The translations under genes and the position numbers were made by a program. Below, piece after piece: positions 1-44,667 of a DNA stretch of 64,000 nucleotides (position 1 is its first letter; each line of letters starts with the position of its first letter). The notes under the pieces were generated by a model. It was not told where the DNA came from. It did no database searches and saw nothing but the letters and a program-made list of their open reading frames with translations. Source of the stretch: Oscillospiraceae bacterium (lineage in GTDB: Bacteria; Bacillota; Clostridia; Oscillospirales; Oscillospiraceae); contig JAFPWN010000015.1 in assembly GCA_017412765.1 (NCBI GenBank), positions 286 to 64,285 on the forward strand, written 5' to 3'.

Positions 1-290
1 TTTTCTTTTGCTGAAACGACCTTTATGCCGTTCTTTTTCAGAATGTGCTTATAGTGAGCACTGTCATAACGGTCACGCGAGAAACGATCCAGTTCCCATA
101 CGAGCACGGTGTCGAACAGTCCCTTTTCACTGTCACGAATCATTCGCTGAAACTCCGGTCTATCTGCGGTACGCGCTGAGAGTGCGCGATCAATGTAGCT
201 TGATAGTATCGTATACCCTTCGCGCTGACTATCCGATGAATAACGTGCATAAATAACTGCTTTCGCTGCCTCACCACCTTGAATTTGATT
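1..290 (-). pseudogene. Serine recombinase (resolvase-type catalytic domain); N-terminal part only, leaves the window, probably decayed
   Basis: Minus frame 290->1 is open for 96 codons: NQIQGGEAAKAVIYARYSSDSQREGYTILSSYIDRALSARTADRPEFQRMIRDSEKGLFDTVLVWELDRFSRDRYDSAHYKHILKKNGIKVVSAKE. It carries YARxSSxxQ and LDRFSR resolvase-type motifs. An in-frame TAG lies at 291-293 with no ATG/GTG/TTG after it. The SSDSQ-to-YIDRA spacing looks about 20 aa shorter than I remember for the family. Absent from the ORF track because it has no start and no stop in the window. Confidence 0.6.
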
Positions 291-454
291 CTAATTGTTA
301 TCATCGGAATTATCAAATGTGCGAGGAGAATCCTTTTCAAAGTCAGCTTGTATTTTTGGAAGCAGGAATTTTGCGAACCGAACAATCTCTTCTTCCGGTG
401 TTTTCGAATTATTAACTTGAACAGAAACAGTATTATCGTCCAATTACCTTTCAC

Positions 455-2623
455 TTATTTTTTCTTTCCCTTAAAAGTCCCGGATTCCTGCGGCTCCGAC
501 TGTTCTTTATACACGTTTTGAGACTCCCACGAGACGGTGACGCCGCCCTTGCCGTCAAAGACGATCGTGTAGACCGTGGAGATGTACTGAACGTCGTTCA
601 TATAACTCTTTTCCAGATAAGTGGCGGTTCTCGTTGCGGGATCGAAAGTGGCGTTCTCGACGGTGAGACGATCGTCATAGTACGATTTGAAAAAGCCCTC
701 TACGCCGTCCTCTTTGATTCGGTTCTTAACATCATCGGGATTCTTCGCCTGCACCAGATAATAGCAGCCGTTGTACTCAAACACGTAATAGCTGCGCTCA
801 CCCTGCTTCTGTTTGCCGCCGTCCCAGTACGCCGTGTAGTCATACGTACCGTAGTAGCCGCCGGTATAGCCGGTGTCGGCGGCAGGTTCCTCCGGCTTGG
901 AGTCGTCGGACTTATCGTCCGCTTTGCCGGTGTCTTTGGCAGGGTCGTAGCCCTCGACCCATTCGCCGTCCTTTTGTACCTGCACGCCGTCCTTCCAGAC
1001 GTTGCCGTTGCCGTCCGATTTCACGATCGTGCCGTCCGGACGGGTCAGATTCCAGCTGTCGTCTTCGGGGTTGCAAACGACCAATCCGCCGTTGGGATCG
1101 TAGTATTCCGACAATGCGCCGTCTTTGACAACGATCCGAAGCCCGTCTTTCGTTACGATGCTGCCCGACGGCTCTCCGTCTTCGTTCTCCTTGTAGCGCA
1201 GGACTGCGCCCGCCTGCTCGTTTGTGAAGACGCGCTCGCCTGTCTCGGCATCGATAAACATATCCAGTCCTGCGGTTTGGCTGTGAATCTTTTGAATCTC
1301 TCCGTCATACGTGGTGACCCAGGACTCAGAGCCGTCCTCTTTTTCAAAGGAAACGCCGTCGGCGGTGAAATCCATTTTGCCGCCGTCCTCATCGATCTGA
1401 TGGACGCCGTCCTTGTCGAACTCAATCGTGCTTCCGTCGGCGTTTTTGAACTTCTTGCCGTCCGTGGACTTCTCGTTGCCCTTTTTGTCGATGTATTTAT
1501 CGGTGCGTCCGGTCACGACGCCGTCGGTGCCGGTCACTTCGCTCTCGAGTTTCGAGCCGTCCTTATACGTGTGGACGCTCTTTACCGATTTCTTGCCGTC
1601 CTCGCCGTAGGTGACGGTATGTTCGCTCGTTGTGCCGTCCTTATTCTCGACGGTCACGTAGATATGATTGTCGTCATTTGTGGCGGTGGTGGTTTTGCCG
1701 TCCTCCGTCCACTTCGTATCAATGCCGTTTTTGACCACCGCGCCGTTTTTGTCAAAGACGATCGTCTGGCTGTTGTGGCCCTTCTCGTTGTCAATGATCG
1801 AGGCGGTGACGGTTTTATTGCCAAACGCGTCAGTCGTCTCGGTCTCTCGGTATTCGCCGTCCTTGCTCACAACGTGGAAATCAGAGCTGTCGTCGGTTTC
1901 AACGCGCGTCATGGACAGTCCGTCCGCGTCCTTTATATCAAGGGCCTCATTCCCGTCCCCGTCCCGCGTCCAGTTCACGCCGCCGAGGCGCTGACCGTTT
2001 TTGTCGGTGACGTTAAGGGAAAACTCCTTCATGTACTCGCCGTCGCCGTCTTTGTAGGGCTCATTTTCGAGGGTATAGGTGATCGTTCTGCCCGTCTTGT
2101 CGGTAACGGTCTGGGTGCCTGTCTTAGAATCGCCGTTTTCGTCATAAAACTCGATCTTGTTGTTTTCGTCTAAGGAAACGCCCGTCCATTTGCCGTCCTT
2201 GTCAAAGGTCATGGTCAGCCCCGTCTCGGCGTTGTATTCGGTGTGAGAGCCGTCGGCATGATAGATCTCGCTGGTGCCGTCCGGATAGTACCCCTCGCCG
2301 CTGCCGTCGGGTCGTTTGGTGCCGTAGCCGCCGTCGAGGGTTTGGAACTTGATCGTTCCGTCCTTGGACTCCTCAAAGTGGTTGCCGTCCTTATCCAGAC
2401 CCTCTTTTCTTCCGTCGGGGTAGGTGGTGCGCATACTGCCGTTTTCAAAAATCTCGGTTTTGGAGCCGTCCGCGCCCTCAAACACCTGCGCGTTGCCGGA
2501 GAAGAGATCTTCGTCACCGAACGACCAATCTCCGCCCTCGGCGGAAGCGACCGTAACCATCGGCACGGACGAAACGAACATTACAAGCGCAAGAAGCAGC
2601 GCAATCGTTTTCTTTTTCATCAT
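455..2623 (-). CDS. Secreted repeat protein (DG-rich beta-hairpin repeats, MORN/TCP10-G-box-like), function unknown
   Basis: 722-aa ORF. Signal peptide MMKKKTIALLLALVMFVSSVPMVTVASAEG. Dozens of short xDGxxxxY/T-type repeats (YPDGRKEGLDKDGNHFEESKDGTIKF...). ATGA overlap with the upstream gene. The 551-aa plus-strand ORF opposite is a shadow. Confidence 0.85.
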   Translation of the reverse strand: MMKKKTIALLLALVMFVSSVPMVTVASAEGGDWSFGDEDLFSGNAQVFEGADGSKTEIFENGSMRTTYPDGRKEGLDKDGNHFEESKDGTIKFQTLDGGYGTKRPDGSGEGYYPDGTSEIYHADGSHTEYNAETGLTMTFDKDGKWTGVSLDENNKIEFYDENGDSKTGTQTVTDKTGRTITYTLENEPYKDGDGEYMKEFSLNVTDKNGQRLGGVNWTRDGDGNEALDIKDADGLSMTRVETDDSSDFHVVSKDGEYRETETTDAFGNKTVTASIIDNEKGHNSQTIVFDKNGAVVKNGIDTKWTEDGKTTTATNDDNHIYVTVENKDGTTSEHTVTYGEDGKKSVKSVHTYKDGSKLESEVTGTDGVVTGRTDKYIDKKGNEKSTDGKKFKNADGSTIEFDKDGVHQIDEDGGKMDFTADGVSFEKEDGSESWVTTYDGEIQKIHSQTAGLDMFIDAETGERVFTNEQAGAVLRYKENEDGEPSGSIVTKDGLRIVVKDGALSEYYDPNGGLVVCNPEDDSWNLTRPDGTIVKSDGNGNVWKDGVQVQKDGEWVEGYDPAKDTGKADDKSDDSKPEEPAADTGYTGGYYGTYDYTAYWDGGKQKQGERSYYVFEYNGCYYLVQAKNPDDVKNRIKEDGVEGFFKSYYDDRLTVENATFDPATRTATYLEKSYMNDVQYISTVYTIVFDGKGGVTVSWESQNVYKEQSEPQESGTFKGKKK

Positions 2624-3018
2624 TGCGCATCACCCACGCTTTCGATTAGGTCTTCCCATTTGTTGAGATTCTGCATACCCGCAAAATATTTGCCGTAGGT
2701 GGTGTCGGCGATCCCCGCTTCGATATCCGCCACGGCGGCGCCCGCCACGGCTTTCTGAAGCTGCGCATAAACCTGCTGCGCCGCCTCGTAGTTGCCGGCT
2801 TCTTCCAGACGCTTGGCGTAATCGCTGAGCTCCTCGAACATAGTTTGCGCCGCCGCAGCTTCGTTGTCGCCGTTTTCCTCCAGCTTCTGGGCGTATTCGT
2901 ACAGGGATGTGTTGTCGGTTTGCATGTTGTTTTTCTTGTTGTCATCTTTCTTTGACCCGCAGGCACATAGCGCAAGCGACATAAGTACCGCAAGCATGAT
3001 TGAAATGATCTTTTTCAT
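2620..3018 (-). CDS. Small lipoprotein, function unknown
   Basis: Lipobox in MKKIISIMLAVLMSLALCACGSKKDD. Start moved to the ATG at 3016-3018, preceded by GGAGGAAAG. Helical A/E/Q-rich mature part. Stop overlaps the next start (ATGA). Confidence 0.75.
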   Translation of the reverse strand: MKKIISIMLAVLMSLALCACGSKKDDNKKNNMQTDNTSLYEYAQKLEENGDNEAAAAQTMFEELSDYAKRLEEAGNYEAAQQVYAQLQKAVAGAAVADIEAGIADTTYGKYFAGMQNLNKWEDLIESVGDAQ

Positions 3019-3061
3019 AAAGCTTTCCTCCCTTTTCAGTGATACGTCAGCAGACTGCATA

Positions 3062-3355
3062 CTACGGAAGAAGTACGCGGTCGACATTAAAAATCACGGT
3101 AATCGGCGTGTGGTTGTCAATGCTTATGCCGCGCAGCTCATAGTCCCGCAAGGCGCTTAAAAACTCATAATAGATGATGCAATCCTCATCGGTTTCCGTT
3201 ACGCTCTCGCCCCAGTGCTTGTGCTCGGTGTGGGTGGAGTCTACCCGGAACAGATCGCGGGAACCGTTTGCGGTGAAGGTGAGCGTAAGGTCATAGGTGC
3301 TGGGCTGAGAGCCGTATCTCGGGTGATCCGCATAAGAGGCGGTATAGGTCGTCAC
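3062..3355 (-). CDS. Hypothetical 97-aa protein, possibly the 3' remnant of a longer gene
   Basis: GTG start with no clear RBS. The frame stays open upstream to about 3406 (..RKTTRGEAFVIDLTAGAV-) without a start codon and then runs into AT-rich sequence. Ends in TAG, the only TAG-terminated ORF I kept. Confidence 0.4.
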   Translation of the reverse strand: MTTYTASYADHPRYGSQPSTYDLTLTFTANGSRDLFRVDSTHTEHKHWGESVTETDEDCIIYYEFLSALRDYELRGISIDNHTPITVIFNVDRVLLP

Positions 3356-3422
3356 AGCGCCCGCCGTCAGGTCGATGACAAATGCTTCGCCGCGTGTTGT
3401 TTTTCTTTATTAAAAAGTTTTT

Positions 3423-3710
3423 TTATTTATTCCGTGTTAACACAAAAGTGCCCTTTGAAGTAATCTCTAAACTATCTTTACTTATCAGGCGTAGTTTCAT
3501 ATCGTTATGCCACTTGCTGTTTGAAATAACCAATACATTCCCGTCAAAAGTGTATTCACAGGAAAATGTGACCGGATTGGATGTTGTTCCGTCTGCTTTT
3601 GAAGCAGTCATAACAACGGTGACGGTATCATTTGCCTGGCTGAACGTATAATTTTCCGTTATGCCTTCACTTGAATAAGACCATAATCCCATAATATCAT
3701 CAATCGTCAC
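3423..3710 (-). CDS. Hypothetical 95-aa protein (beta-rich, lipocalin-like feel)
   Basis: ORF MTIDDIMGLWSYSSEGITENYTFSQ... ATGA overlap with the upstream lipoprotein gene. Visibly AT-richer than its neighbours. Confidence 0.6.
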   Translation of the reverse strand: MTIDDIMGLWSYSSEGITENYTFSQANDTVTVVMTASKADGTTSNPVTFSCEYTFDGNVLVISNSKWHNDMKLRLISKDSLEITSKGTFVLTRNK

Positions 3711-5203
3711 GCCTGTCGCACCTGTACCGCCTTGCTGCTCGGTGTTACTGTTTGATGAATTATTTTTCCCGTATTGCTGTTTTCGGAAGCGCTTGTATCA
3801 GGCTCATTTTTACTGTTTCCTGAATTTTCCTCTTCGTATCCCATCTCGGCAATTTCATAAAGAACATTCTGCAGGAGCTTCAGATAAGCGTCAAGGTCAA
3901 AATCATCCTGCATGATCGGCTTTGTATTGTCGATAATCATTTGGCTGACCTCGGGGGTCATCGTATCCGTGCTCATTTTTACCGGCGCCGGGTCTGTTTC
4001 GCCGGATGCTGCCAGCGCCGAGTTGATCCTCTCTTCGGAAACGCCTGCGTTCTTTAAGACGTCCGTGACATTCTTCTGCTGATCGGGTTCGGTACCCGTG
4101 AGCGTGTTCATCAGCGTGAACTTGACGCCGTCGTCACCCTTTGTGAAGGTTCCGCTCATAATCGAGCCGCCGTTCACATAGTCATTGATTGCTCCTGCGC
4201 CGTACGAGATTACGCCGAAGGAATTCATAGCAAGTTCCTCTTTCGTTTTTGCGTCAAGCGAGTTATAACCGTTTTTCCATATATCTTTGCCCGCGCCTGC
4301 CAGATCCTTGATGTTTGCGCCCACGCCCGCGATGGCAAAGATCTGGCCGATCGGCGCGAGCTGTGCTTCCGTCTTGTCGCAAGCCATACTGAACTCGTTA
4401 TCCTCGCCGTTTGTATAGAGGATAGAAGCGGTTGAGCCGATTTCAAGGACTGTGTTGACACCGCTCATTGTAATACCGCCAGTGCTGACCGCCGTCGCCA
4501 ATGCGCCGCTTGCGGGTGCGGTTGCAACGGCGATCACCAAGCCCGCCGCTGTGCCCGCTGTTTTGAGAACGGTTGCGGTTTTAACAGCGGTATTTGCCTT
4601 ATCGGCAATCTGCGTGTATTCGGCGCCCATCAAAATATCCTGCGCCATCTCCATCTGTGCGTAGGCGTGCTTTGCATCCGTGCCGAGCTGTGAAGCGAGG
4701 TGCCTGATCGCATAGCCCGGCTTCGCCTTCGCATACTCGTCCATGATGGACTGCGCCCATTCCTTTGAACCCATTTCTGCGGCATACGCCGTTATACCGA
4801 GAGATGCTGCGGCACTAAGCTTCTGAACTTTCGGCCCTTCTCCGTTTTCCTCCTGTTCATAAACGTCAAGTGCTTCGTTCAGAACGGCATTCATTTTATC
4901 TGCATTCTCAAACGCCCTCACTGCGTTGTCAACAAGTGCGGCGTATTGGGCATAATTATCTTCTGTTAAACCTGAAACATCGTAGTTAATGAACGCATCA
5001 AGATAGGCTCTGCCGGCGAGATAGTAGTTTACAGCCAAGCCGGAAGCGGCGTCAACAACAGCCTCTGCGTCTGTCGGAACAGGGTAATTCACCTGTGCCT
5101 TCTCCGTTTTGCGGTTTTTATCCCCGCACCCGGCAAGGAGGGACAAGGTCATAACGGCAGCGATCAGAAGTGATGCAAACCGTTTTGCTTTTTTCATAAT
5201 CAT
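3707..5203 (-). CDS. Lipoprotein (about 496 aa), function unknown
   Basis: Lipobox MKKAKRFASLLIAAVMTLSLLAGCGDK. The likelier start is the ATG at 5195-5197, 8 nt after AAGGA. The central Ala/Gly/Thr-rich hydrophobic stretch (TAGTAAGLVIAVATAPASGALATAVSTGGI) may be membrane-inserting. G+C is lower than in the flanks. Confidence 0.8.
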   Translation of the reverse strand: MIMKKAKRFASLLIAAVMTLSLLAGCGDKNRKTEKAQVNYPVPTDAEAVVDAASGLAVNYYLAGRAYLDAFINYDVSGLTEDNYAQYAALVDNAVRAFENADKMNAVLNEALDVYEQEENGEGPKVQKLSAAASLGITAYAAEMGSKEWAQSIMDEYAKAKPGYAIRHLASQLGTDAKHAYAQMEMAQDILMGAEYTQIADKANTAVKTATVLKTAGTAAGLVIAVATAPASGALATAVSTGGITMSGVNTVLEIGSTASILYTNGEDNEFSMACDKTEAQLAPIGQIFAIAGVGANIKDLAGAGKDIWKNGYNSLDAKTKEELAMNSFGVISYGAGAINDYVNGGSIMSGTFTKGDDGVKFTLMNTLTGTEPDQQKNVTDVLKNAGVSEERINSALAASGETDPAPVKMSTDTMTPEVSQMIIDNTKPIMQDDFDLDAYLKLLQNVLYEIAEMGYEEENSGNSKNEPDTSASENSNTGKIIHQTVTPSSKAVQVRQA

Positions 5204-5216
5204 TTTCCTTTATCAA

Positions 5217-5352
5217 CTATTGTTTTATGTTGACACAACGGGAAGCAATGTAGTTCTTGACAAACTCAAAGTCCTCTTTTGCCGCATAAACCTGATTATG
5301 TTCGAGGCGTTCGTTCACCTTTATAAGATCCCGGCGGGGCTGCGCGTTTTTT
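5217..5352 (-). pseudogene. 3' fragment of a paralogue of the 7917-8534 membrane-protein gene
   Basis: The minus frame reads ..FRQTKNAQPRRDLIKVNERLEHNQVYAAKEDFEFVKNYIASRCVNIKQ*. It aligns with the C-terminus of the 7917-8534 product (..KVRKIKAYPRRHVIKVKETLEHNQIYASDEDFAFVQQYILSHCPNAKQ*) at about 27 of 42 positions. No start codon, and it begins inside the tail of the 843-aa gene. Confidence 0.7.
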
Positions 5353-5370
5353 GTTTGCCTAAACGGCCTT

Positions 5371-7902
5371 TCAGTTCCCCGCTTCGCGGTTGAAGCGCAG
5401 GTTCTGGGCTATTTCGTCCTTCGTGCCCGGATTGAGGATGAACCGGGCGGCGGGATACCCGGTCAGGGAATCCTTTTCCGGCACTCTCTCGATCCGCATG
5501 GGGTCGAGATCCGGTGTGTCCCCCGCTTTTCCGTACAGGTTGCCGTAGATGATCCCCGTTTCGGTTTTTTCGATCAGGATCGCGCCGGTCTTCGGATCGA
5601 CGGTGTATTTGCGTTCAAAGGCGTAATCCACCCCGGACCGCCAGTCGGGATGAGCGGGATCGGCGTAATAATAGGACTCGTAAAGGAGGGTCTCCCCGTC
5701 GATGATTGTGATCCTATTGGACTGGGTGCTGAATCCCGAAAACGCGCCGCCCTCTCCCTCGTACCTGGGATAGCTCCACGCGCCGTTCAGCCAGTCCGCG
5801 CCGGTAGAGGTATTGCCGAGCTCCACCGTCGTCTGGCGGTCGCCGTCCGTTTTGGCGGTAAAGTCCTTCACGGCGATCGGCGCCGCGCCGCTCTTGTAAT
5901 CCGATTCGTTCTTGTAAACCAGCACCTGGTTCGGCATCCCCATTTTCAGAAAGCCGAGCACGGTACATTCGTAGTCGACGTCCCAGCCGTCGTCGAAATC
6001 ACTGCCTTCCGGGACGTTCCAGTAAAGATCGGGAATCGGTTTGCCCTCGCTGCCGAAGCAGACCGTGCAGCCCTGGTATTTCGTGTTCTCGGTGCTCTGC
6101 TGATCGACGGACTCCTGTATCGTAAAACTGAGCGTCTTGTTGTAGGTCTCTGTCGCCTTTGTCAGCTCGGCAAGAGTCTTTTCCTGGAGGCGCTCGATCA
6201 GGAATCTCTGGATCTTCGTCATCGCTTCGGTCTCGATTAGGCGCCACACCTTCGCCTTCTGCTGTTCGGTGAGCGCCGCCTTCTGATCCGACGTTGCGTT
6301 GAAGAAAACGTTTTTGTATCCGGCGGAGGAAGCCGCGAACAGGATGTCCGCGTTCGTCTCGTCGTAGACCTCCTGCCAGAACTTCTCGCAGTACTCGTCC
6401 ACCGCTTTTTTGATCTCGCGCATGGCGGCATCCGCGTCTCCGTTGCTGTGCCAGTAGGCCTCCTCGAACACCCGGTACCAGTGATCACTGTCAAACGGCT
6501 CGACCTTGGTATAATAGGCGTTGAAGACCGCGCTGACGTTTTCGGCCTGCTCGATTTTCGCCGCGTCGACGAAATAGTCGATTTCCATGCCCATAAGCGC
6601 AACGCCGACGAAGGCGATCGTGAAGCCGACGTGGCTGTAGCCGGTCGTCAGAGAATAGATCGTGCCGCCGCTGCCGAGCATATTTTTGTAAAGATTATAG
6701 CCCGCCGTTTGCGTCCGGTCCTTGTCCGTGCTGTTCAGATCCATGCCAACCTGCACCGCCATGGCGAGGAAGGGGATCGCGTTCATGGCGTTGCCGAGCT
6801 CGCCGGAGTGGTCGATCATAAAACTGACCGCGCGGCTCTGCGAGGCGGGAGGCAGCGAGTCGATGCCGAGATTGATCATGGCGTCGCAGAACGTCCACAT
6901 GGTATTCGTTTCTGTGAACGCCTGATACGCGGCCTTCGCGTCCATATTGGGGTCGAGCGTCGGCATTTTGACCGCGTAGTTCTCCGGATCGTCGATAAAG
7001 GCGGTCACCTCGTCCGAAAACTCGGCCGGATTGGTGCGCTGCAGGATGTTCCAGTAGTTTGACACCACCGCAAGCGTGAGCAGATAGGGGTTATCCTCAT
7101 CCGCGACGACCTTGTAGAGCGAGGGGTTCGATCCGACCGGCCTGTACGTGACCCGCGCCGGAGAAAAACTACCGAAATACGCCGTCGCCGTGCCGGCTTC
7201 TTCGTTTACGAACGTGAGCAGCGGCATCCAATTCCCGTCTTTGTAGTGCTCGACGATAACGTCCGTGCCGGACTGGACGCGGCAGGGAAAGGTGACCGCT
7301 ACGGGAACGTAAAAATCTTCGTGCTTGCCCATCTCCAGCTCGTACGCCTCGTAGCGCGTTCCGTCCGCCTCCGTTCCGCTTTCGTAGACCGAGACGGACA
7401 CGTCGCGCTTGCCGGACTCCAGCATCAGTGTATCCACGTCGACCGTCACGCCGCAAAGTGTGATCGCCGGCGACTCCGCGCTGACGCTCCCCTTCTCCGA
7501 GGCCTGCACCTTTCCGAACTCGGGCTTCGGCTCCTTGCCGCCGCGGAACCAGCCGCCGTTCCGGAATCCGAAGATCCCGACAACGATCGCCGCCACGAGC
7601 AGAAGCGACACGGCGGCAAGCCCGCCCTTGCCCTTCTTTTTGGCGGCCGGTGCGGCGGACTGCTGATAGACGTACGCCTGCTGCTGCGCTCTCGCCGCGT
7701 TCCGCTGCGCGAACTGCTCCGGGATCCGCACCTGCGGCCGCGGAGTGTATGAGTGCGGCTGCGGATTCGCCTGCGGCTGCGGATTGGGAGAGCTCTTCGG
7801 CTGCTGCGGCTGCGCCGCCTGCGGGACGGGCGAACCGCAGGAGGAGCAGAATCTGACTCCCTCTCCGAGCGGGGATCCACAATTCTGACAAAACTTAGCC
7901 AA
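5371..7902 (-). CDS. Zinc-ribbon membrane-anchored protein with a large extracytoplasmic domain, function unknown
   Basis: 843 aa with a TTG start. N-terminus MAKFCQNCGSPLGEGVRFCSSCGSPV (CxxC..CxxC), then a P/Q-rich linker, one TM (LAAVSLLLVAAIVVGIFGF), then about 720 aa with no motif I recognise. Confidence 0.85.
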   Translation of the reverse strand: MAKFCQNCGSPLGEGVRFCSSCGSPVPQAAQPQQPKSSPNPQPQANPQPHSYTPRPQVRIPEQFAQRNAARAQQQAYVYQQSAAPAAKKKGKGGLAAVSLLLVAAIVVGIFGFRNGGWFRGGKEPKPEFGKVQASEKGSVSAESPAITLCGVTVDVDTLMLESGKRDVSVSVYESGTEADGTRYEAYELEMGKHEDFYVPVAVTFPCRVQSGTDVIVEHYKDGNWMPLLTFVNEEAGTATAYFGSFSPARVTYRPVGSNPSLYKVVADEDNPYLLTLAVVSNYWNILQRTNPAEFSDEVTAFIDDPENYAVKMPTLDPNMDAKAAYQAFTETNTMWTFCDAMINLGIDSLPPASQSRAVSFMIDHSGELGNAMNAIPFLAMAVQVGMDLNSTDKDRTQTAGYNLYKNMLGSGGTIYSLTTGYSHVGFTIAFVGVALMGMEIDYFVDAAKIEQAENVSAVFNAYYTKVEPFDSDHWYRVFEEAYWHSNGDADAAMREIKKAVDEYCEKFWQEVYDETNADILFAASSAGYKNVFFNATSDQKAALTEQQKAKVWRLIETEAMTKIQRFLIERLQEKTLAELTKATETYNKTLSFTIQESVDQQSTENTKYQGCTVCFGSEGKPIPDLYWNVPEGSDFDDGWDVDYECTVLGFLKMGMPNQVLVYKNESDYKSGAAPIAVKDFTAKTDGDRQTTVELGNTSTGADWLNGAWSYPRYEGEGGAFSGFSTQSNRITIIDGETLLYESYYYADPAHPDWRSGVDYAFERKYTVDPKTGAILIEKTETGIIYGNLYGKAGDTPDLDPMRIERVPEKDSLTGYPAARFILNPGTKDEIAQNLRFNREAGN

Positions 7903-7916
7903 ATCTCGTCGTTCCT

Positions 7917-8534
7917 TTACTGTTTGGCGTTGGGACAGTGCGAAAGGATATACTGCTGCACGAACGCAAAATCCTCGTCCGACGCGTAGATCTGGTTATG
8001 CTCCAGCGTTTCCTTTACCTTGATCACGTGGCGGCGGGGATACGCTTTAATTTTTCGGACTTTTGAAAAATCGGAATACATCTCCGTGCGTTGGGCGTTC
8101 ATTCCGGCGCCGACCGTTCCGATCCTGCCCGACGCCGCACCCGCAATCATCGTGGCACGAGCGAGCTTTTCCGCTTTTTTGGCCTGTGCCGCGATCTGTC
8201 TGTGGGTTATGCCTTTTTCGTCCATTTCAAACTCGACAATATATTTTCCGCCCATTATTGCGGCGTATAAAAGATACCCCAAACCTACAACGGCGGTCAT
8301 CCCCAAAAAGAAATATCCCAGAAACGGCAGGTTCTCCGCCGCCTTGTCCGCGCCCCAATTGGCCGCGTCGGAGATCAGCTCGACGGCGGACACGCCGAGA
8401 AACAGGAAGAAAAAGATCTTCCAGACCAGAACAAAGAATCTGAGGTCTTTGAACAGGTTGATCTCATAGACCCAGCGGTATTTTCCATCCTCGCAGAGAA
8501 TAACACGGGCGTTTAACGTTTCGCTTTCTTTCAT
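7917..8534 (-). CDS. Two-TM membrane protein, function unknown
   Basis: Start moved to the ATG at 8532-8534 (MKESETLN..), preceded by GAGG and lying after the upstream stop. Two hydrophobic helices and a cytoplasmic C-terminal domain. A C-terminal paralogue fragment lies at 5217-5352. Confidence 0.75.
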   Translation of the reverse strand: MKESETLNARVILCEDGKYRWVYEINLFKDLRFFVLVWKIFFFLFLGVSAVELISDAANWGADKAAENLPFLGYFFLGMTAVVGLGYLLYAAIMGGKYIVEFEMDEKGITHRQIAAQAKKAEKLARATMIAGAASGRIGTVGAGMNAQRTEMYSDFSKVRKIKAYPRRHVIKVKETLEHNQIYASDEDFAFVQQYILSHCPNAKQ

Positions 8535-8545
8535 ACGCCTCACCC

Positions 8546-9292
8546 TCACTTTAACAGCGGCAGACCGCATTTTTGGCATCGGTCGGATTCTATGGAATTT
8601 TTTGTACCGCAGCTTACGCAAGCGATATACGGAGCGCGGGATTTATCGTATAATTCATACGGGAAATGAAACTGCGGATGATATTTGAATCGGTCGCCCA
8701 CTTGCAGATAGTCCCACGCCCAGATCTGAGTTCCTTCCTGCTCGACGATTCTTTTTTTCTTGCCGTCGCTTGTGCGCACAACGGTTACGTACTCCGTCAC
8801 CATTTCCTGATCGTCGTTATTCTTGTGGCGGTAGGTAAGACCCGTTTTTTTGTCGATCACGGTCGCCTCATAAGTGTTCTTGGCGCGTTCTTTTACAAAA
8901 CCGTAAATTGCGAATAATAAAAATATCCCAGAGATGACGGCACCGTATTTCAGTGCGTCCGTAGTCTCCATTTTATCACTCACGATACTGTAAATGACAA
9001 AGCCGATCAGCGGCAACGGTACGAAAAACAGCGAAAAGATACCCGCCGCCTTGCGGTTTTTCTTGACCGCCGCAAGAATTTCGGGATGGTTTACCCTGTC
9101 GGAAAAGCCCGGCGCGGGAATGCCCTGCCTCACTGCGCCGTTTCCGGCCCAGGCAGGCGCCCCATATACAGGCGCGGTATATTGTGTTGCAATCTGCTGT
9201 GCCGGTGCGGGTGCGGCGTTTTGTGCCGCTCCACAGTTAGGACAGAATTTGGCGTTGTTTTCTATTTGCGCGCCGCAGTTTGAACAAAACAT
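8546..9292 (-). CDS. Double zinc-ribbon membrane protein (DUF2500-like beta domain)
   Basis: 248 aa. N-terminal MFCSNCGAQIENNAKFCPNCG, two TM helices, then a C-terminal CVSCGTKNSIESDRCQKCG. RBS AAGGAGG upstream. First gene of the minus-strand cluster. Confidence 0.85.
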   Translation of the reverse strand: MFCSNCGAQIENNAKFCPNCGAAQNAAPAPAQQIATQYTAPVYGAPAWAGNGAVRQGIPAPGFSDRVNHPEILAAVKKNRKAAGIFSLFFVPLPLIGFVIYSIVSDKMETTDALKYGAVISGIFLLFAIYGFVKERAKNTYEATVIDKKTGLTYRHKNNDDQEMVTEYVTVVRTSDGKKKRIVEQEGTQIWAWDYLQVGDRFKYHPQFHFPYELYDKSRAPYIACVSCGTKNSIESDRCQKCGLPLLK

Positions 9293-9332
9293 AAAGATAC
9301 CTCCTTGCGAATTTTACTTTATTACAGAGTAC

Positions 9333-9362
9333 ATTATACTACTATAATAAGGATCGCCTCAA
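9333..9362 (-). promoter_or_regulatory. Candidate sigma-A promoter for the 9292->455 cluster
   Basis: The minus strand reads TTGAGG-N18-TATAAT (plus-strand CCTCAA at 9357-9362, ATTATA at 9333-9338), about 40 nt upstream of the ATG at 9292. Confidence 0.45.
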
Positions 9363-9364
9363 GA

Positions 9365-9403
9365 GTTGACAGCAAGTTGTCATTGACAATTTTCTTGGTC
9401 AAC
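9365..9403. promoter_or_regulatory. Nested palindromes, candidate operator in a divergent intergenic region
   Basis: GTTGACAGCAAG-TTGTCATTGACAA-TTTTCTTGGTCAAC: a perfect 13-nt palindrome TTGTCAtTGACAA (9377-9389) flanked by inverted GTTGAC/GTCAAC arms. Confidence 0.4.
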
Positions 9404-9465
9404 TGATTGATTTCCGGCCTGCTTTATGCTAAAACGATTATGAAATCATAGCAGGAGACAAGCCT

Positions 9466-9726
9466 ATGTTCAGCGAAAGACTAAATAGAATACTCACTTT
9501 GCTCGATGTAACTTCGGGGGATTTTGCGCGCTTTACCGGATGCGATAAATCCTATATCAGCCGTATGACAAGCGGTGCGAGAGTCCCTAAAAAAGGCGGA
9601 GCGGGCGCTTAGCGTATCGTAGACGGCATATACGCCTCTGCCGATGAAAAGGGCAAAACCGCCGGGATCTGCGAGCTGATTTCCTGCTAAGATCAAAACT
9701 CCGCAGATGGGATAAAGTCACAGATC
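9466..9726 (+). pseudogene. Disabled first HTH module of the downstream regulator gene (in-frame TAG and TAA)
   Basis: ATG at 9466 with a good RBS (AGGAG, 8 nt), in frame with 9727. It reads MFSERLNRILTLLDVTSGDFARFTGCDKSYISRMTSGARVPKKGGAGA*RIVDGIYASADEKGKTAGICELISC*DQNSADGIKSQIMAWLYD. Stops at 9610-9612 (TAG) and 9688-9690 (TAA). Homologous to residues about 26-120 of the 515-aa product. Confidence 0.7.
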
Positions 9727-11274
9727 ATGGCTTGGCTCTACGACGGAGAAGAGGTTACGGATAAGAAATCCAAAGCACCGAAGGATAAAGTGCCATACCG
9801 TGTGTTTGGAGAAAAGCTGAACGCCGTTATGGAACTTGCGGAGATCTCCAACATTCGCCTTGGAAATCTGGTCAATATCGATACTTCTTACATAAGTCGA
9901 TTCCGAAACGGACTGCGATCCCCGAAATCCAACCCGCGCACTATGGACGCCATATGCACCGCTTTATTGCGCAGACTGGGAGAACAGAATAAAATAAAAC
10001 AACTTGCGGCTCTTTTGAAAGCTGACCACGACGCGCTGACGGACGAAGAAGAGGCGTTTTCGCTGTTTCACGACTGGCTGTACGATACCGAAAAGACCGA
10101 CAGCAGTTCGGTAATCGAAAAGCTGCTTGAAAGCATCGATACCTTTTCTATAAACACAAAAACGCCGCTGCCTTCTTTTGAGGAAGCAGCGGCAACATTC
10201 AAATGTGAAGACACTGTATATTTCGGCTCGACCGGCTTACAAAACGCGGTGATACGGTTTCTCGGGGGCGTGATTTCGGGCGGAGACAAAGAACTGTATT
10301 TATATTCCGACCAGAATATGAACTGGCTGACCGACCCTGAGTTTCGTCTGAAATGGGCGGTGCTGATGCTTTGCTGTGTGCAAAAAGGCGTCAAGATCCA
10401 CATCATTCATAACGTTGACCGCGACGTTTCCGAAATGATCGAGGCGATCATCAGCTGGCTGCCGCTCTATATGTCTGGAATGATCCGTTCTTATTACTGC
10501 AAAAAACAGAAGAACTCCCGGTTTTCCAATACGGTCTTTTTATGCCCGGGCGTCGCCTGCATCAAGGGCAGCAATGTGATCGGAACAGAAGATCAAAACG
10601 GCGAATATCGTTACGATACTGATACTAAACTATTGGAAATGCACCAAGCTGCTTTTCACAGTCTGCTCGCCGACGCAAAGCAGCTTGTGAGAATATACGG
10701 CAATCTTGAAAGCGAAGGGGTTATTCACACGGGCTATTCCGGAATGACTGTGCTCGGAACAGCGCTGTCATTTGCCACGATGCCAAAAGAGATGCTCGTT
10801 TCGATCCTTGAACGCTGCGGCGCTGACGAAACCGTGAAGAACAGGGCGTTTTCCGTTTGGGAAAGTCGAAAGAGATTACTCGACGATACGCTGAGCGGAT
10901 CATTCGTCCACGAGTGCATTCCCGTGGCGGATGAAGAAAGCCTGTTTGGAAATAAAGTCTTAACGGATATTCCCAGTCTAAATGTCGCATATACACCGAA
11001 GGAATATGCTGAACATATACGGAACATCATCGCGCTGTCGGATGAAAGCCCAAAATACCGTTTCTGCGCTTTGCCGGACGCGCCCTTTGCCAATACGCAG
11101 ATCGTACTTTTCGACGACCTCGTAACGGTAAGTAGGCTGAACACCCCGCAGGTCACGTTTTTGATTTCCCATCCGGCTATGTACGAAGCCTTTGTCGCTT
11201 ATGCCGACCGCATAACAGCCCGCTACAAACAGGATAAACTCACGACCAAAAGACTGCTGGAACGGTATTTGTAA
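9727..11274 (+). CDS. HTH-containing putative transcriptional regulator with a large C-terminal domain
   Basis: 515-aa ORF. HTH-like FGEKLNAVMELAEISNIRLGNLVNIDTSYISRFRNGLRSPK. No convincing RBS before 9727, so the true start is uncertain. Divergent from the zinc-ribbon cluster. Confidence 0.75.
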   Translation: MAWLYDGEEVTDKKSKAPKDKVPYRVFGEKLNAVMELAEISNIRLGNLVNIDTSYISRFRNGLRSPKSNPRTMDAICTALLRRLGEQNKIKQLAALLKADHDALTDEEEAFSLFHDWLYDTEKTDSSSVIEKLLESIDTFSINTKTPLPSFEEAAATFKCEDTVYFGSTGLQNAVIRFLGGVISGGDKELYLYSDQNMNWLTDPEFRLKWAVLMLCCVQKGVKIHIIHNVDRDVSEMIEAIISWLPLYMSGMIRSYYCKKQKNSRFSNTVFLCPGVACIKGSNVIGTEDQNGEYRYDTDTKLLEMHQAAFHSLLADAKQLVRIYGNLESEGVIHTGYSGMTVLGTALSFATMPKEMLVSILERCGADETVKNRAFSVWESRKRLLDDTLSGSFVHECIPVADEESLFGNKVLTDIPSLNVAYTPKEYAEHIRNIIALSDESPKYRFCALPDAPFANTQIVLFDDLVTVSRLNTPQVTFLISHPAMYEAFVAYADRITARYKQDKLTTKRLLERYL

Positions 11275-11367
11275 TAGTTTAAGAATGTGCAGAAACACCC
11301 ATAAGAAAAGCAAAAAAATATTTCTAATGGGGCATTTTAAAGAGTACTAAAGTGAGCGATTGACGCT

Positions 11368-11925
11368 ATGTTCGTAATGTATAAAGAACCGATTGAAAAG
11401 GGTCTTATCGGATACGCCGGTCAGCTCGGCAAGGATGTTAACGATTTGGCAGATGACGAAATAATGTACGTAGTGGAAAAGGTCGCGGAGATTGCCGGTG
11501 AAGTCGGCACAAACATCATTATGCAAGGTCAGCATGTGCCGGAACTTTTCGGTTTTTCGACACAAATTCCGCAGCACGAAGACTTTTCAGCCAAACTGTC
11601 AGCCGACAAAATCAACTTCCATAAAAAATGGACTCACTCCGATACTAAACTCGGAGCGCCGCTCTTTTTCAGTGAGTTATCCGAAAATGAAGCAACCGAC
11701 ATTGAAGGTGCCAGAAATTTCTTTGGAAGTAATCCCGGTATGGAAATAAAGTATAATTTCCTGCGTGATGAATACGCTAAGATACTTGACGGAATCGACA
11801 GGGAGATATATTATTTATCTGAGTAGGGATACAAGCAAAAAGAAATCGCTAAAAAACTCGGATACAGCAATCACTCCGCCGTTTCAAAGCGGATGAAAAA
11901 GATAAATAAAGATTTTCAGGAATTC
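11368..11925 (+). pseudogene. Mobile-element sigma-70-like / HTH protein gene interrupted by an in-frame TAG
   Basis: The ORF ends ..ILDGIDREIYYLSE at TAG 11824-11826. The same frame continues GYKQKEIAKKLGYSNHSAVSKRMKKINKDFQEF, a typical sigma region-4-type HTH, so the DNA-binding part is cut off. No clear RBS at 11368. Confidence 0.6.
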
Positions 11926-12219
11926 TTAGGTTTTAAGTACCCATTCCATTTGATTTTGTGCCTTGAGGTCTTCGGTAATTCCGTCGGCTGCGGCGTATTC
12001 CTTTATCAGCCTGTCGAACAGCTCGTTTGCCGCTCTGTCAGTTTCCTCTAGGTGAGCGTTTAGAGTGCCGCCGAGAAACATTCCGGTGTAAATTGGATTT
12101 CTGTTCTTCCGCAGGAACTCTTTTCTTCGTCTGCCCCAAACTCCGATGTTCGGCTCTTTCGGCGCTGTAAGGTCAGGAATGAGATAGTCTCCCCCGTGGT
12201 GGTATGTGATTTCTGCCAT
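11926..12219 (-). pseudogene. tnpV: Truncated TnpV-family transposon protein
   Basis: MAEITYHHGGDYLIPDLTAPKEPNIGVWGRRRKEFLRKNRNPIYTGMFLGGTLNAHLEETDRAANELF..QMEWVLKT*. The TnpV N-terminal signature (ITYxxxGDYLIPxL) is recognised from memory. It ends about 20-25 aa short of the usual C-terminus, exactly where it meets the converging sigma-like remnant. Confidence 0.6.
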
Positions 12220-12285
12220 TTTGATGCCCTCATTTTAGGTTGTAGGCTCATCATAGCAGAAAAAGATAGAAATGACGAATGTGCG

Positions 12286-12324
12286 AAAAAAGCCCGAAGA
12301 TTGCATCTCTGCAACCTTCGGGCT
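12286..12324 (-). terminator. Rho-independent terminator-like hairpin (minus direction)
   Basis: AAAAA-AGCCCGAAGaTTGCAtctctTGCAAcCTTCGGGCT. The A-run on the plus side becomes a U-run for minus-strand transcripts coming from the tRNA/repeat side. Confidence 0.5.
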
Positions 12325-12409
12325 GAAACTAAATATTCTCTAAATCTTCCAGATAAGCAAGAAATCCGAACGCTGCTCCGATCGGAACAAAGTTCGGATT
12401 TCTATGCTT

Positions 12410-12701
12410 TGGTGGAGACTGACAGGCTCGAACTGTCGAAGCCGACGCTTGTGCGTCTGCTTCTCTTTTCCGCTTTGCTCAATTTGAGGTCGACAACGTT
12501 CGAGCCTCGCACTTTTTCGCAACAAAAAAGCACCCCCGACGGGGTGCTTTTTTGTTGGTGGAGACTGACAGGCTCGAACTGTCGAAGCCGACGCTTGTGC
12601 GTCTGCTTCCCTTTTCCGCTTTGCTCAATTTGAGGTCGACAACGTTCGAGCCTCGCACTTTTTCGCAGCAAAAAAGCACCCCCGACGGGGTGCTTTTTTG
12701 T
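12410..12701 (-). repeat. Two tandem 146-bp direct repeats, each starting with the last 30 nt of tRNA-Val (att-site-like scars)
   Basis: Units 12410-12555 and 12556-12701 differ at 2 positions. Each begins (plus strand) TGGTGGAGACTGACAGGCTCGAACTGTCGA, identical to 12702-12731 inside the intact tRNA-Val. Each ends with the hairpin AAAAAAGCACCCCCGACGGGGTGCTTTTTT. The period of 146 continues into the tRNA. Confidence 0.9.
12670..12699 (-). terminator. Bidirectional rho-independent terminator just downstream of tRNA-Val (copy also at 12524-12553)
   Basis: A6-GCACCCC-cgac-GGGGTGC-T6, 3 nt after the tRNA-Val CCA end. Confidence 0.8.
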
Positions 12702-12778
12702 TGGTGGAGACTGACAGGCTCGAACTGTCGACCTCACGCGTGTGAGGCGTGCGCTCTAACCAGCTGAGCTAAGCCTCC
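12702..12778 (-). tRNA. tRNA-Val (anticodon CAC)
   Basis: Reverse complement GGAGGCTTAGCTCAGCTGGTTAGAGCGCACGCCTCACACGCGTGAGGTCGACAGTTCGAGCCTGTCAGTCTCCACCA. The cloverleaf folds by hand, with anticodon loop CTCACAC and an encoded CCA. Confidence 0.93.
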
Positions 12779-12784
12779 GTTTAT

Positions 12785-12859
12785 TGGTGACCCGGACGGG
12801 ATTTGAACCCGTGTTACCGCCGTGAAAGGGCGGTGTCTTAACCGCTTGACCACCGGGCC
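12785..12859 (-). tRNA. tRNA-Glu (anticodon TTC)
   Basis: Reverse complement GGCCCGGTGGTCAAGCGGTTAAGACACCGCCCTTTCACGGCGGTAACACGGGTTCAAATCCCGTCCGGGTCACCA, with anticodon loop CTTTCAC. Confidence 0.93.
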
Positions 12860-13012
12860 TCGTCGTTTGAAGCTCGCTTCACTCCGTTTCGGCGCTGAAG
12901 GACGCGCCAAAACTCCGTATCCGCTCCCTCCAAACTCCTCTTCAAGACGAACCCGCTTTGCTGGGCTTCGTCTTGATTTTGAGTAAAAGAGTGCCTCGCA
13001 CATACATATATC

Positions 13013-13040
13013 AAAAAGGGGTGCGAAAGCACCCCTTTTT
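13013..13040 (-). terminator. Hairpin terminator directly after tRNA-Met
   Basis: AAAAAGGGGTGC-gaaa-GCACCCCTTTTT, flanked by A/T runs on both sides. Confidence 0.75.
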
Positions 13041-13042
13041 GA

Positions 13043-13119
13043 TGGTAGCGGCGACTGGATTCGAACCGGTGACACCGCGGGTATGAACCGCGTGCTCTAG
13101 CCAACTGAGCTACGCCGCC
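13043..13119 (-). tRNA. tRNA-Met (anticodon CAT, elongator type)
   Basis: Reverse complement GGCGGCGTAGCTCAGTTGGCTAGAGCACGCGGTTCATACCCGCGGTGTCACCGGTTCGAATCCAGTCGCCGCTACCA. Resembles the Bacillus elongator Met rather than initiator (no CGCGGGG start) or Ile2. Lysidine-Ile cannot be fully excluded. Confidence 0.85.
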
Positions 13120-13136
13120 GTAATGAGGCAAGAGTT

Positions 13137-13165
13137 ATTATACCCATCTGCCACTTAATTGTCAA
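13137..13165 (-). promoter_or_regulatory. Consensus sigma-A promoter for the tRNA cluster
   Basis: The minus strand reads TTGACA-N17-TATAAT, ending about 17 nt upstream of the tRNA-Met 5' end. Confidence 0.8.
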
Positions 13166-13223
13166 GAACTTTTTTACTATTGTGGAAAAAGAATTTATAT
13201 GGTACAATTCAGCCGGTGATACT

Positions 13224-13877
13224 ATGGATTTTCACGCGAATGCGGAGCATTTTATGCGCGATATGCGCTACCGCACCAAAATCATGCTCTATGTCAGCTT
13301 CACGCTGAACCTGATCTACGCCCTTGTGAAGCTGACTCTCGGCATCTGGGGCAACACCGTATGGGATATAGTTCTCGCGCTCTATTACATGGCGCTGGCG
13401 CTTATGCGCTTCGTCGTTCTGCGCACGGCGCGCGGTACGGAATTCGGCTCATTTCCCGAGGGCGAATACCGCATTTACCGCTTCGTCGGCGCGGTACTGC
13501 TTTTTATGAACCTTCTCCTCTCCGTCATGGTCGCCGCGTATTTGAGGCGCGAGGTGAGCTACAACTACTCCCTCATTCGATTGATCATAATGGCGGCTTA
13601 CTCCTTCTGGAAGATAATCTCAGCCACAGTTGCCGTCGTGCGCTCACCGCGCCAGCACTCCCCGCTCTACTCCTCGGCAAAAAATATCTCCCTCGCCGCG
13701 GCGCTCGTTTCCATGCTCTCGCTTGAGGAGGCGATGCTCGAATCGTTCTCTACCGACCCCGCGTTCCGGGATACGATGGTCGGCGCGACGGGGCTCGTTT
13801 CCTCGCTTATCCTCATCTCGCTCAGCGTTTATATGATCACCCGCGCAACACTGTTTCTCAGGAGACGCAGAAAATAA
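13224..13877 (+). CDS. Multi-pass membrane protein, function unknown
   Basis: The track ORF starts at GTG 13182, but TTGTGG-N17-(TGg)TACAAT at 13180-13208 sits inside it, so I prefer the ATG at 13224 (MDFHANAEHF..). About 5-6 hydrophobic helices. Confidence 0.65.
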   Translation: MDFHANAEHFMRDMRYRTKIMLYVSFTLNLIYALVKLTLGIWGNTVWDIVLALYYMALALMRFVVLRTARGTEFGSFPEGEYRIYRFVGAVLLFMNLLLSVMVAAYLRREVSYNYSLIRLIIMAAYSFWKIISATVAVVRSPRQHSPLYSSAKNISLAAALVSMLSLEEAMLESFSTDPAFRDTMVGATGLVSSLILISLSVYMITRATLFLRRRRK

Positions 13878-44411: not shown

Positions 44412-44667
44412 ACTCCCCTATTATATCAATGCGTCGACAAAGTCTCCGCATCGAACATATTTTGCACTCTCGGAGCGCAAAATATGACGCCTGCGGGCGG
44501 GTGATGCGACGTGAAGGGGCCTCTTGGCCGGCCCCTTCACAGAACCCCGCCTCCTATATCCAACGCTTTTTCTTTTTGTCTACAGTCTGATTATATCCGT
44601 TATTATACCAAATATCGTGCATAATTGGTAGAGATTTTTTAAAATTCTTATTCTTTCCGGCGATAAT

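Follow-up and report, generated by a model that had tools for sequence, protein, structure and literature searches.

The tRNA-linked repeats (TLRs) of Escherichia coli are the closest described counterparts of the locus considered here. There are 22 of them, defined by 3′ ends that are identical to the upstream gene over 18–19 bp; known since 1978, they have no known function and no accepted origin, and they are transcribed and processed, with three of them binding Hfq and CsrA (PMC8144298). The 178-bp repeats of tyrT and tyrV hold rttR/RtT (Egan and Landy 1978; Rudd 1999; summarised in PMC8144298). At tyrV of E. coli K-12 (NC_000913:1286700–1287330) we find the 178-bp unit in 3.1 copies, each closed by the 19 3′-terminal nt of tRNA-Tyr, a stretch that begins within the T-loop. 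About 60 nt past the CCA the unit further contains the tRNA-Tyr T-arm in inverted form (GGGGAAGGATGAGAAGCTTCGA), which matches at 19/22 bases, a level reached by 0 of 2000 shuffles; we found no mention of this inverted copy in PMC8144298. Prophages, ICEs and IMEs that target tRNA genes resemble the locus in other ways, namely in the direct repeats of the tRNA 3′ end that start at or near the T-loop, in stacking at one tRNA, and in the replacement 3′ end and terminator that the incoming DNA brings with it.

Behind a tRNA-Val(CAC) gene in a 64,000-nucleotide stretch of DNA from an Oscillospiraceae bacterium (the window), there is an array that we think is probably best explained as two tandem, gene-less, structured tRNA-tail modules of 146 bp closed by a third tail, belonging to a TLR-like class and originating, as we infer, through an integrase acting in trans. 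The same composite layout as that of the E. coli TLRs is found here in a rumen Firmicute, a parallel that is absent from the preliminary description of this DNA.

The host gene belongs to a minus-strand cluster of tRNA-Met(CAT) (13043..13119), tRNA-Glu(TTC) (12785..12859) and tRNA-Val(CAC) (12702..12778), all identified by both ARAGORN and Rfam (58–68 bits); it is the sole Val(CAC) gene of the genome. On the same strand, upstream of tRNA-Met, lies a promoter of sigma-70-type consensus (TTGACA-17-TATAAT, 12/12 hexamer matches; 13137..13165). Within the cluster, a bidirectional terminator stands immediately 3′ of tRNA-Met (~13013–13040), and the ~150 nt between it and tRNA-Glu are without a predicted promoter. 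The last 30 nt of tRNA-Val(CAC), TCGACAGTTCGAGCCTGTCAGTCTCCACCA, occur exactly three times on the minus strand, once in the gene itself (core copy 1, 12702–12731) and twice beyond it (12556–12585 and 12410–12439), with 0 matches in shuffled sequences, and TRF detects a 146-bp repeat present in 2.2 copies at 98% identity across 12409–12731. The triple tail at 146-bp spacing that had been described is borne out by these results, and so are the two near-identical units with 2 mismatches in 146: on the plus strand the units differ at 12668/12522 (G/A) and 12610/12464 (C/T), and the longest exact repeat is 68 nt.

Unit 1 shares the strand of tRNA-Val(CAC) and starts immediately past its CCA, at the very next base. 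Read along the gene strand, each unit runs from a terminator after the CCA through a 13-nt stretch, an inverted copy of part of the tRNA (INV), a 21-nt spacer and a GC hairpin to a direct copy of the tRNA tail (DIR). In unit 1 these are a bidirectional intrinsic terminator (AAAAAAGCACCCC-GTCG-GGGGTGCTTTTTT; 12670..12699); INV on the plus strand (12631..12653); the hairpin on the minus strand, with 10 bp plus one mismatch, a 4-nt loop and DIR abutting it (12584..12609); and DIR, or core copy 2, an exact minus-strand match to the 30-mer that spans T-stem to CCA (12556..12585). Unit 2 repeats the order, with its terminator at 12524..12553 (sequence and TRF), INV aligned on the plus strand at 12485..12507, and the minus-strand hairpin (12438..12463) and DIR, the exact core copy 3 (12410..12439). 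All three elements attributed earlier to each unit, namely terminator, 10-bp hairpin and a T-arm-like segment on the opposite strand, are thus in place. The boundaries of the core lie 2 nt 5′ of the T-stem and at CCA(A). The terminator motif is generic in the family (400 family genomes). The 116-bp insert between core copies holds no credible ORF, and no promoter-like site was found within the unit. As the array measures 2 × 146 + 31, a plain tandem duplication is ruled out and an ancestral core-115-core state is required; this single-unit state was found in two contigs, L073 and L076. Immediately 3′ of the DIR of unit 2 there is unique flank and no unit terminator, and right after the array the flank carries a hairpin with 11-bp arms (GAAATCCGAAC/GTTCGGATTTC; 12361..12402, detected as a self-inverted match).

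INV corresponds to the variable loop, 5′ T-stem and T-loop of tRNA-Val(CAC) (positions 42–63). It matches that gene at 21/21 bases apart from a 2-nt insertion, a score attained by 0 of 2000 shuffles, and tRNA-Val(CAC) is its best match among the 38 tRNAs of the genome. In the predicted single-strand fold, INV and the T-arm portion of DIR form a 16-bp duplex that contains a 2-nt bulge; the duplex would enclose the spacer and hairpin and leave a free tail, GTCAGTCTCCACCA, that equals the acceptor 3′ strand plus CCA, while the terminator folds independently. The fold z-scores range from −3.4 to −5.8 for the modules and reach −10.7 for the whole array. Integron attC and the attP of CTX phage are folded single-strand recombination sites. 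They, too, contain two inverted copies of a recombinase target, 45–100 nt apart, that pair into a mimic of the duplex target; the module duplex carries its 2-nt bulge, and we speak of resemblance only and claim no membership.

Derivation of the unit from a decayed tandem tRNA gene was tried and rejected. The sequence 5′ of the core scores at best 13 in local alignment with the 5′ two thirds of tRNA-Val, and the likeness of the hairpin to the anticodon arm is non-significant, 592/2000 shuffles being as good. The tRNA models of ARAGORN and Rfam gave 0 matches on the units. An apparent Rfam hit to MIR2646 is a reflection of the long palindrome; the real Rfam matches are the three tRNAs only.

In its plan the array is much like a TLR. 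Like TLRs, which immediately follow a tRNA or rRNA gene in their operon, it stands right after the tRNA; its units end with the 3′ end of the upstream tRNA (30 bp here versus 18–19 bp in E. coli); it has two units, and related contigs one or two, where TLR loci hold one to five in tandem; it takes the form of n units plus one extra tail; and an inverted T-arm copy is present both here and in the tyrV units. On the other hand, the host is a member of another phylum, each unit starts with an intrinsic terminator of its own whereas the tyrT repeats lie inside the transcript, and DIR is longer (30 nt) and starts before the T-stem. A cmscan of 11800–13400 gave no match to RtT (RF00391) at E values up to 10, so the likeness to TLRs is architectural only. 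The strain-dependent unit number and the recombinant units described below also recall minisatellites (VNTRs), but here the repeat unit is fixed to a tRNA gene, and its anatomy is a composite derived from the tRNA.

Every tRNA of the genome was screened for repeats of its own 3′ half. The order terminator–INV–hairpin–DIR recurs behind tRNA-Val(GAC) (C30:20830–21176; period 145, 1.7 units), behind tRNA-Lys(TTT) on contig C40 and, in weaker form, behind tRNA-Arg(CCG) on contig C35. INV starts 48–53 nt past the CCA at each of these loci, and the terminators, spacers and hairpins of the different loci are unrelated in sequence. The Val(GAC) module recurs in the sister species G029 (94% identity), with both INV and the stem of the hairpin intact. 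Same-species contigs (L141–L149) have 1, 1.7 or 2.7 units at the Val(GAC) locus, and the arrays there have two alternative downstream flanks, one of which resembles the flank in G029. For the tRNA-Lys locus, a look-up of the neighbouring protein returned no record. A separate interspersed repeat of ~166 bp is present in at least 17 copies (91–98% identical) in each of three genomes, namely G000 (the genome of the window) and those of the sister species G029 and G031, for example at 44426–44593 of the window and at C40:25860–26030 of G000; the tRNA-Lys module contains one copy, which extends it to 338 bp.

Across the family, a pattern joining a T-loop to an inverted T-loop (GTTCRANYC-N(50-80)-GRNTYGAAC) matches 93/301 genomes. 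By hand tally there are ~135 sites, versus ~39 for a reversed-pattern control, with a maximum of 8 in one genome. At the family loci that we fetched, INV and DIR stand behind tRNAs for Leu, Ser, Val, Lys, Gln, Arg and Gly, in many cases as tandem units, and the 5′ start of DIR ranges over tRNA positions 47–59. A module core of ~85 nt is common to three loci behind different tRNAs, and at least 12 genomes of a single genus (g124) carry it scattered over several loci; the INV and DIR around it always fit the local T-loop variant, AAT, ACC or AGT. A core that occurs behind different tRNAs with locally matched ends points to movement between tRNA genes, with the ends copied from or adapted to the target. 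On these comparisons, the modules are a widespread class found at many different tRNA genes of the family.

The unit at Val(CAC) itself appears to be far more restricted. Searches of its own genome, of 60 relatives, of 37 other species of the genus and of 400 family genomes recovered only the tRNA and the generic terminator, and in its own genome the unit is present at the Val(CAC) locus alone. Exact-pattern scans of metagenome, genome and viral contigs with two diagnostic 23/24-mers gave 0 matches, as did a search of viral contigs for the tRNA-Val tail; phage and plasmid collections yielded terminator-like matches only, and the 116-bp insert bore no likeness to the ends of the IMEs of sister species. 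Nor does the unit have the many dispersed genomic copies of a MITE or interspersed repeat, and the possibility raised earlier, that it is a widespread intergenic repeat unrelated to tRNA-Val, did not materialise. That the Val(CAC) unit is without any sequence relative in the searched sets would count against mobility of the unit itself.

Unit number varies among strains. Exact-protein look-ups of two neighbouring genes retrieved same-species contigs, 99–100% identical to the window, from independent rumen metagenomes. With the bases at the two variant sites given for each unit, the window and a 143-kb contig of ERZ28018705 have two units (C..G followed by T..A), L077 has two (C..G in both), L073 (a 54.9-kb contig of ERZ28019070) has one (C..A) and L076 has one (T..A); contigs L066 and L068 terminate within the array. 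The C..A unit of L073 matches the outcome expected of a crossover between the two variant sites, and as these sites lie outside the core, the exchange looks homologous and not site-specific. Given the differences in unit number and the recombinant unit, arrays appear to expand and contract by unequal homologous recombination or slippage, bearing in mind that these are short-read assemblies in which near-identical units could collapse at small k. Of the two things that the preliminary description proposed to look for, copy-number variation came to light and an element bearing an attP did not. Every same-species contig has at least one unit, the flanks in other species are unrelated, and among close homologues of the neighbouring membrane protein every retrieved contig ends at the tRNA cluster; we found no empty site with matching flanks, which may be counted against insertion with target duplication.

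Tyrosine recombinases use this tRNA gene elsewhere in the genus. The genome has 20 PF00589 matches, none of them on the 65.6-kb contig (C73) that holds the array, in agreement with the earlier statement that there is no integrase nearby. At 6/28 loci from species of the genus, an integrase lies ≤1.5 kb downstream of tRNA-Val(CAC), and in G029 and G031 a 407-aa integrase (PF00589, 4.7e-34) and a MobA-type relaxase abut an identical tRNA-Val(CAC). By sequence comparison, tRNA-Val(CAC) is an integration hot spot in the genus. The elements behind it in G031 (L038, C22:1–9000) and G029 (L009/L037, C21) are integrative mobilizable elements that encode a tyrosine integrase, a MobA/VirD2 relaxase and a ParM-like protein, and their contigs stop before the far att site; in G025, no second att repeat of the tRNA-Val(CAC) integrase element was found within 40 kb. 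The genome also carries two classical elements, one of 19.6 kb at tRNA-Ser(GCT) (C25:39576–59268) with a 62-bp repeat that runs from the T-loop through the terminator, and one of 13.5 kb at tRNA-Met (C70:~200–13693) with a 104-bp repeat that starts in the anticodon loop. Among homologues of the G031 integrase next to tRNA-Val(CAC), the integrase of the former element (C25:39859–40962) is the nearest (42%). The long-range att repeats of both have neither INV nor hairpin.

Set beside such elements, the array is part match and part misfit. Its core repeats the 3′ part of a tRNA from around the T-loop onward and has att boundaries of the T-loop class, and sister species have integrase elements at the same gene, so the preliminary description was right to call the segment att-type. 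Its repeats, however, are only 116 bp apart, where prophages, ICEs and IMEs have an integrase and cargo between or beside theirs, and they enclose no gene. A CIME is likewise att-flanked and integrase-less, but it derives by deletion from a known ICE or IME and has ends like those of its parent, whereas the insert here matched no element among phages, plasmids, viral contigs or relatives. From the genuine 19.6-kb and 13.5-kb elements the modules also differ in their constant features, INV and the abutting hairpin.

The course of events that we consider probable would begin with the placing of the first unit at the T-arm through site-specific recombination by a tyrosine integrase, provided in trans by a resident integrative element. 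The module would supply a replacement tRNA 3′ end and terminator, displacing the original end, and would as such be a miniature non-autonomous integrative element. The second unit would stem from tandem duplication, and later gain and loss would proceed by unequal homologous recombination or slippage. Among the options put forward earlier, a minimal non-autonomous element comes nearest to this sequence of events and tandem duplication accounts for the second unit; repeated integration and excision leaving scars fits poorly. That no integrase is tied to the module would count against placement by an integrase, as would the homologous look of the crossover in L073 and the lack of INV and hairpin at the att repeats of the two classical elements. 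A further-reaching version, argued from analogy, is that the modules are protein-less miniature integrative elements whose INV/DIR single-strand fold mimics a T-arm att site, on which tyrosine recombinases in trans could act to insert, excise and stack them, and that the E. coli TLRs are of the same kind; we regard it as rather unlikely.

Other explanations have to be weighed against placement in trans. The modules could be kept by selection as a functional small RNA of TLR type, with read-through from the operon producing a transcript from which the tRNA 3′-end machinery frees a folded RNA, so that the tRNA-matched ends serve processing and not recombination. The prediction is of a strong, closed fold that leaves the CCA tail free, the E. 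coli TLRs set a precedent for transcription, processing and protein binding, and the Val(GAC) module has kept INV and its hairpin stem across two species; yet each unit opens with a strong intrinsic terminator directly 3′ of the CCA, which argues against strong transcription of the units and would leave read-through as the only route by which they are transcribed with the operon. As the unit also has no promoter-like site and no Rfam match, RtT included, is missing at Val(CAC) from every other species searched and varies freely in copy number, we see only a small chance that such an RNA explains the modules. We give a similarly small chance to a local rearrangement without any recombinase, in which INV arose at the terminator hairpin by template switching driven by the palindrome or by fold-back synthesis, and DIR arose through slippage between short repeats. 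INV is indeed symmetric about the centre of the terminator, with 13 nt unpaired on each side, near-equal distances are seen at the Val(GAC) and Lys loci, and units are later gained and lost by homologous exchange; but mismatches number 0/21 in the outer block versus 9/13 in the inner 13 nt, a poor fit to one fold-back copy followed by decay. Moreover, the conserved core behind different tRNAs in many genomes needs movement between loci, and the 5′ ends of DIR cluster at tRNA positions as integrase crossovers do.

Less probable again is that the repeats are att-type scars of one or more large tyrosine-integrase elements that entered tRNA-Val, lost their interior and left a remnant that was duplicated. 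Such an origin could draw on the use of this gene by integrases in the genus, on the att-like core boundaries and on the mobile-element debris of the flank (TnpV, a resolvase fragment and the 12.4-kb segment with its 90-bp repeats). Set against this, the 116-bp insert is unlike any element searched and unlike the IME ends of sister species, and independent decay would not yield one ordered anatomy at four tRNAs of this genome and dozens elsewhere. The stacked scars of decayed large elements in the preliminary description do not hold up, since the same anatomy recurs at other tRNAs, one module family has a conserved core scattered behind different tRNAs, and genuine att repeats of the genome are without INV and hairpin. 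That the array is an assembly artefact or a collapsed repeat, the true locus having some other, fixed structure, is very improbable. The window does come from a 74-contig draft, and several metagenome contigs end within the array. Nevertheless, the units differ at two sites and the longest exact repeat is no more than 68 nt, the junction from hairpin through core to terminator is possible only in a tandem array, and the two-unit structure with its variants is also present in the independent 143-kb contig, a MEGAHIT assembly at k141. A tandem junction cannot arise from a single-unit locus at k >31, so the array is no assembly artefact, and the concern voiced on this point at the outset is countered by independent assemblies with the same array.

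What began as an old curiosity of E. coli can now be approached by comparative genomics and simple recombination assays, and the material is favourable: the layout is found at several tRNAs of one genome, the pattern in about a third of the sampled family genomes, and unit number varies naturally. Should the modules be protein-less elements, the E. coli TLRs, unexplained since 1978, would be elements of the same kind. In practical terms, extra copies of tRNA 3′ ends together with terminators may mislead callers of tRNAs, att sites and genomic islands, and the modules break short-read assemblies.

Downstream of the array are found the flank hairpin, a truncated TnpV gene and a segment of 12,369 bp that has a perfect 90-bp direct repeat at either end (window ~1–12338; contig C73:165–12623). 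These features are context outside the array. The right copy of the 90-bp repeat (12249..12338) carries a terminator and a promoter-like site for TnpV, and the truncated TnpV gene (11926..12219, minus strand; PF14198, 6e-30) is mobile-element debris. At the far end of the segment lies an N-terminal fragment of a serine recombinase (resolvase) on the minus strand (window 1–290, C73:252–575; PF00239, 1.4e-18), which is without a start codon and is truncated exactly where the left 90-bp repeat starts; no intact recombinase was found within the segment. Its genes comprise the resolvase fragment, eight envelope genes, a 515-aa HTH regulator, a sigma-like fragment and the truncated TnpV. A joined circle or tandem junction of the segment is present in three independent metagenome assemblies (L074, L075 and L078), and one MEGAHIT contig measures 12,510 bp, which is 12,369 plus k141, the signature of a circular path. 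In L073, at the equivalent of window 9466–11274, the 515-aa regulator and a dead HTH module upstream of it form one 602-aa ORF. Compared with the window, L073 is 98.8% identical over the 12.4-kb segment and 99.96% identical over the other flank.
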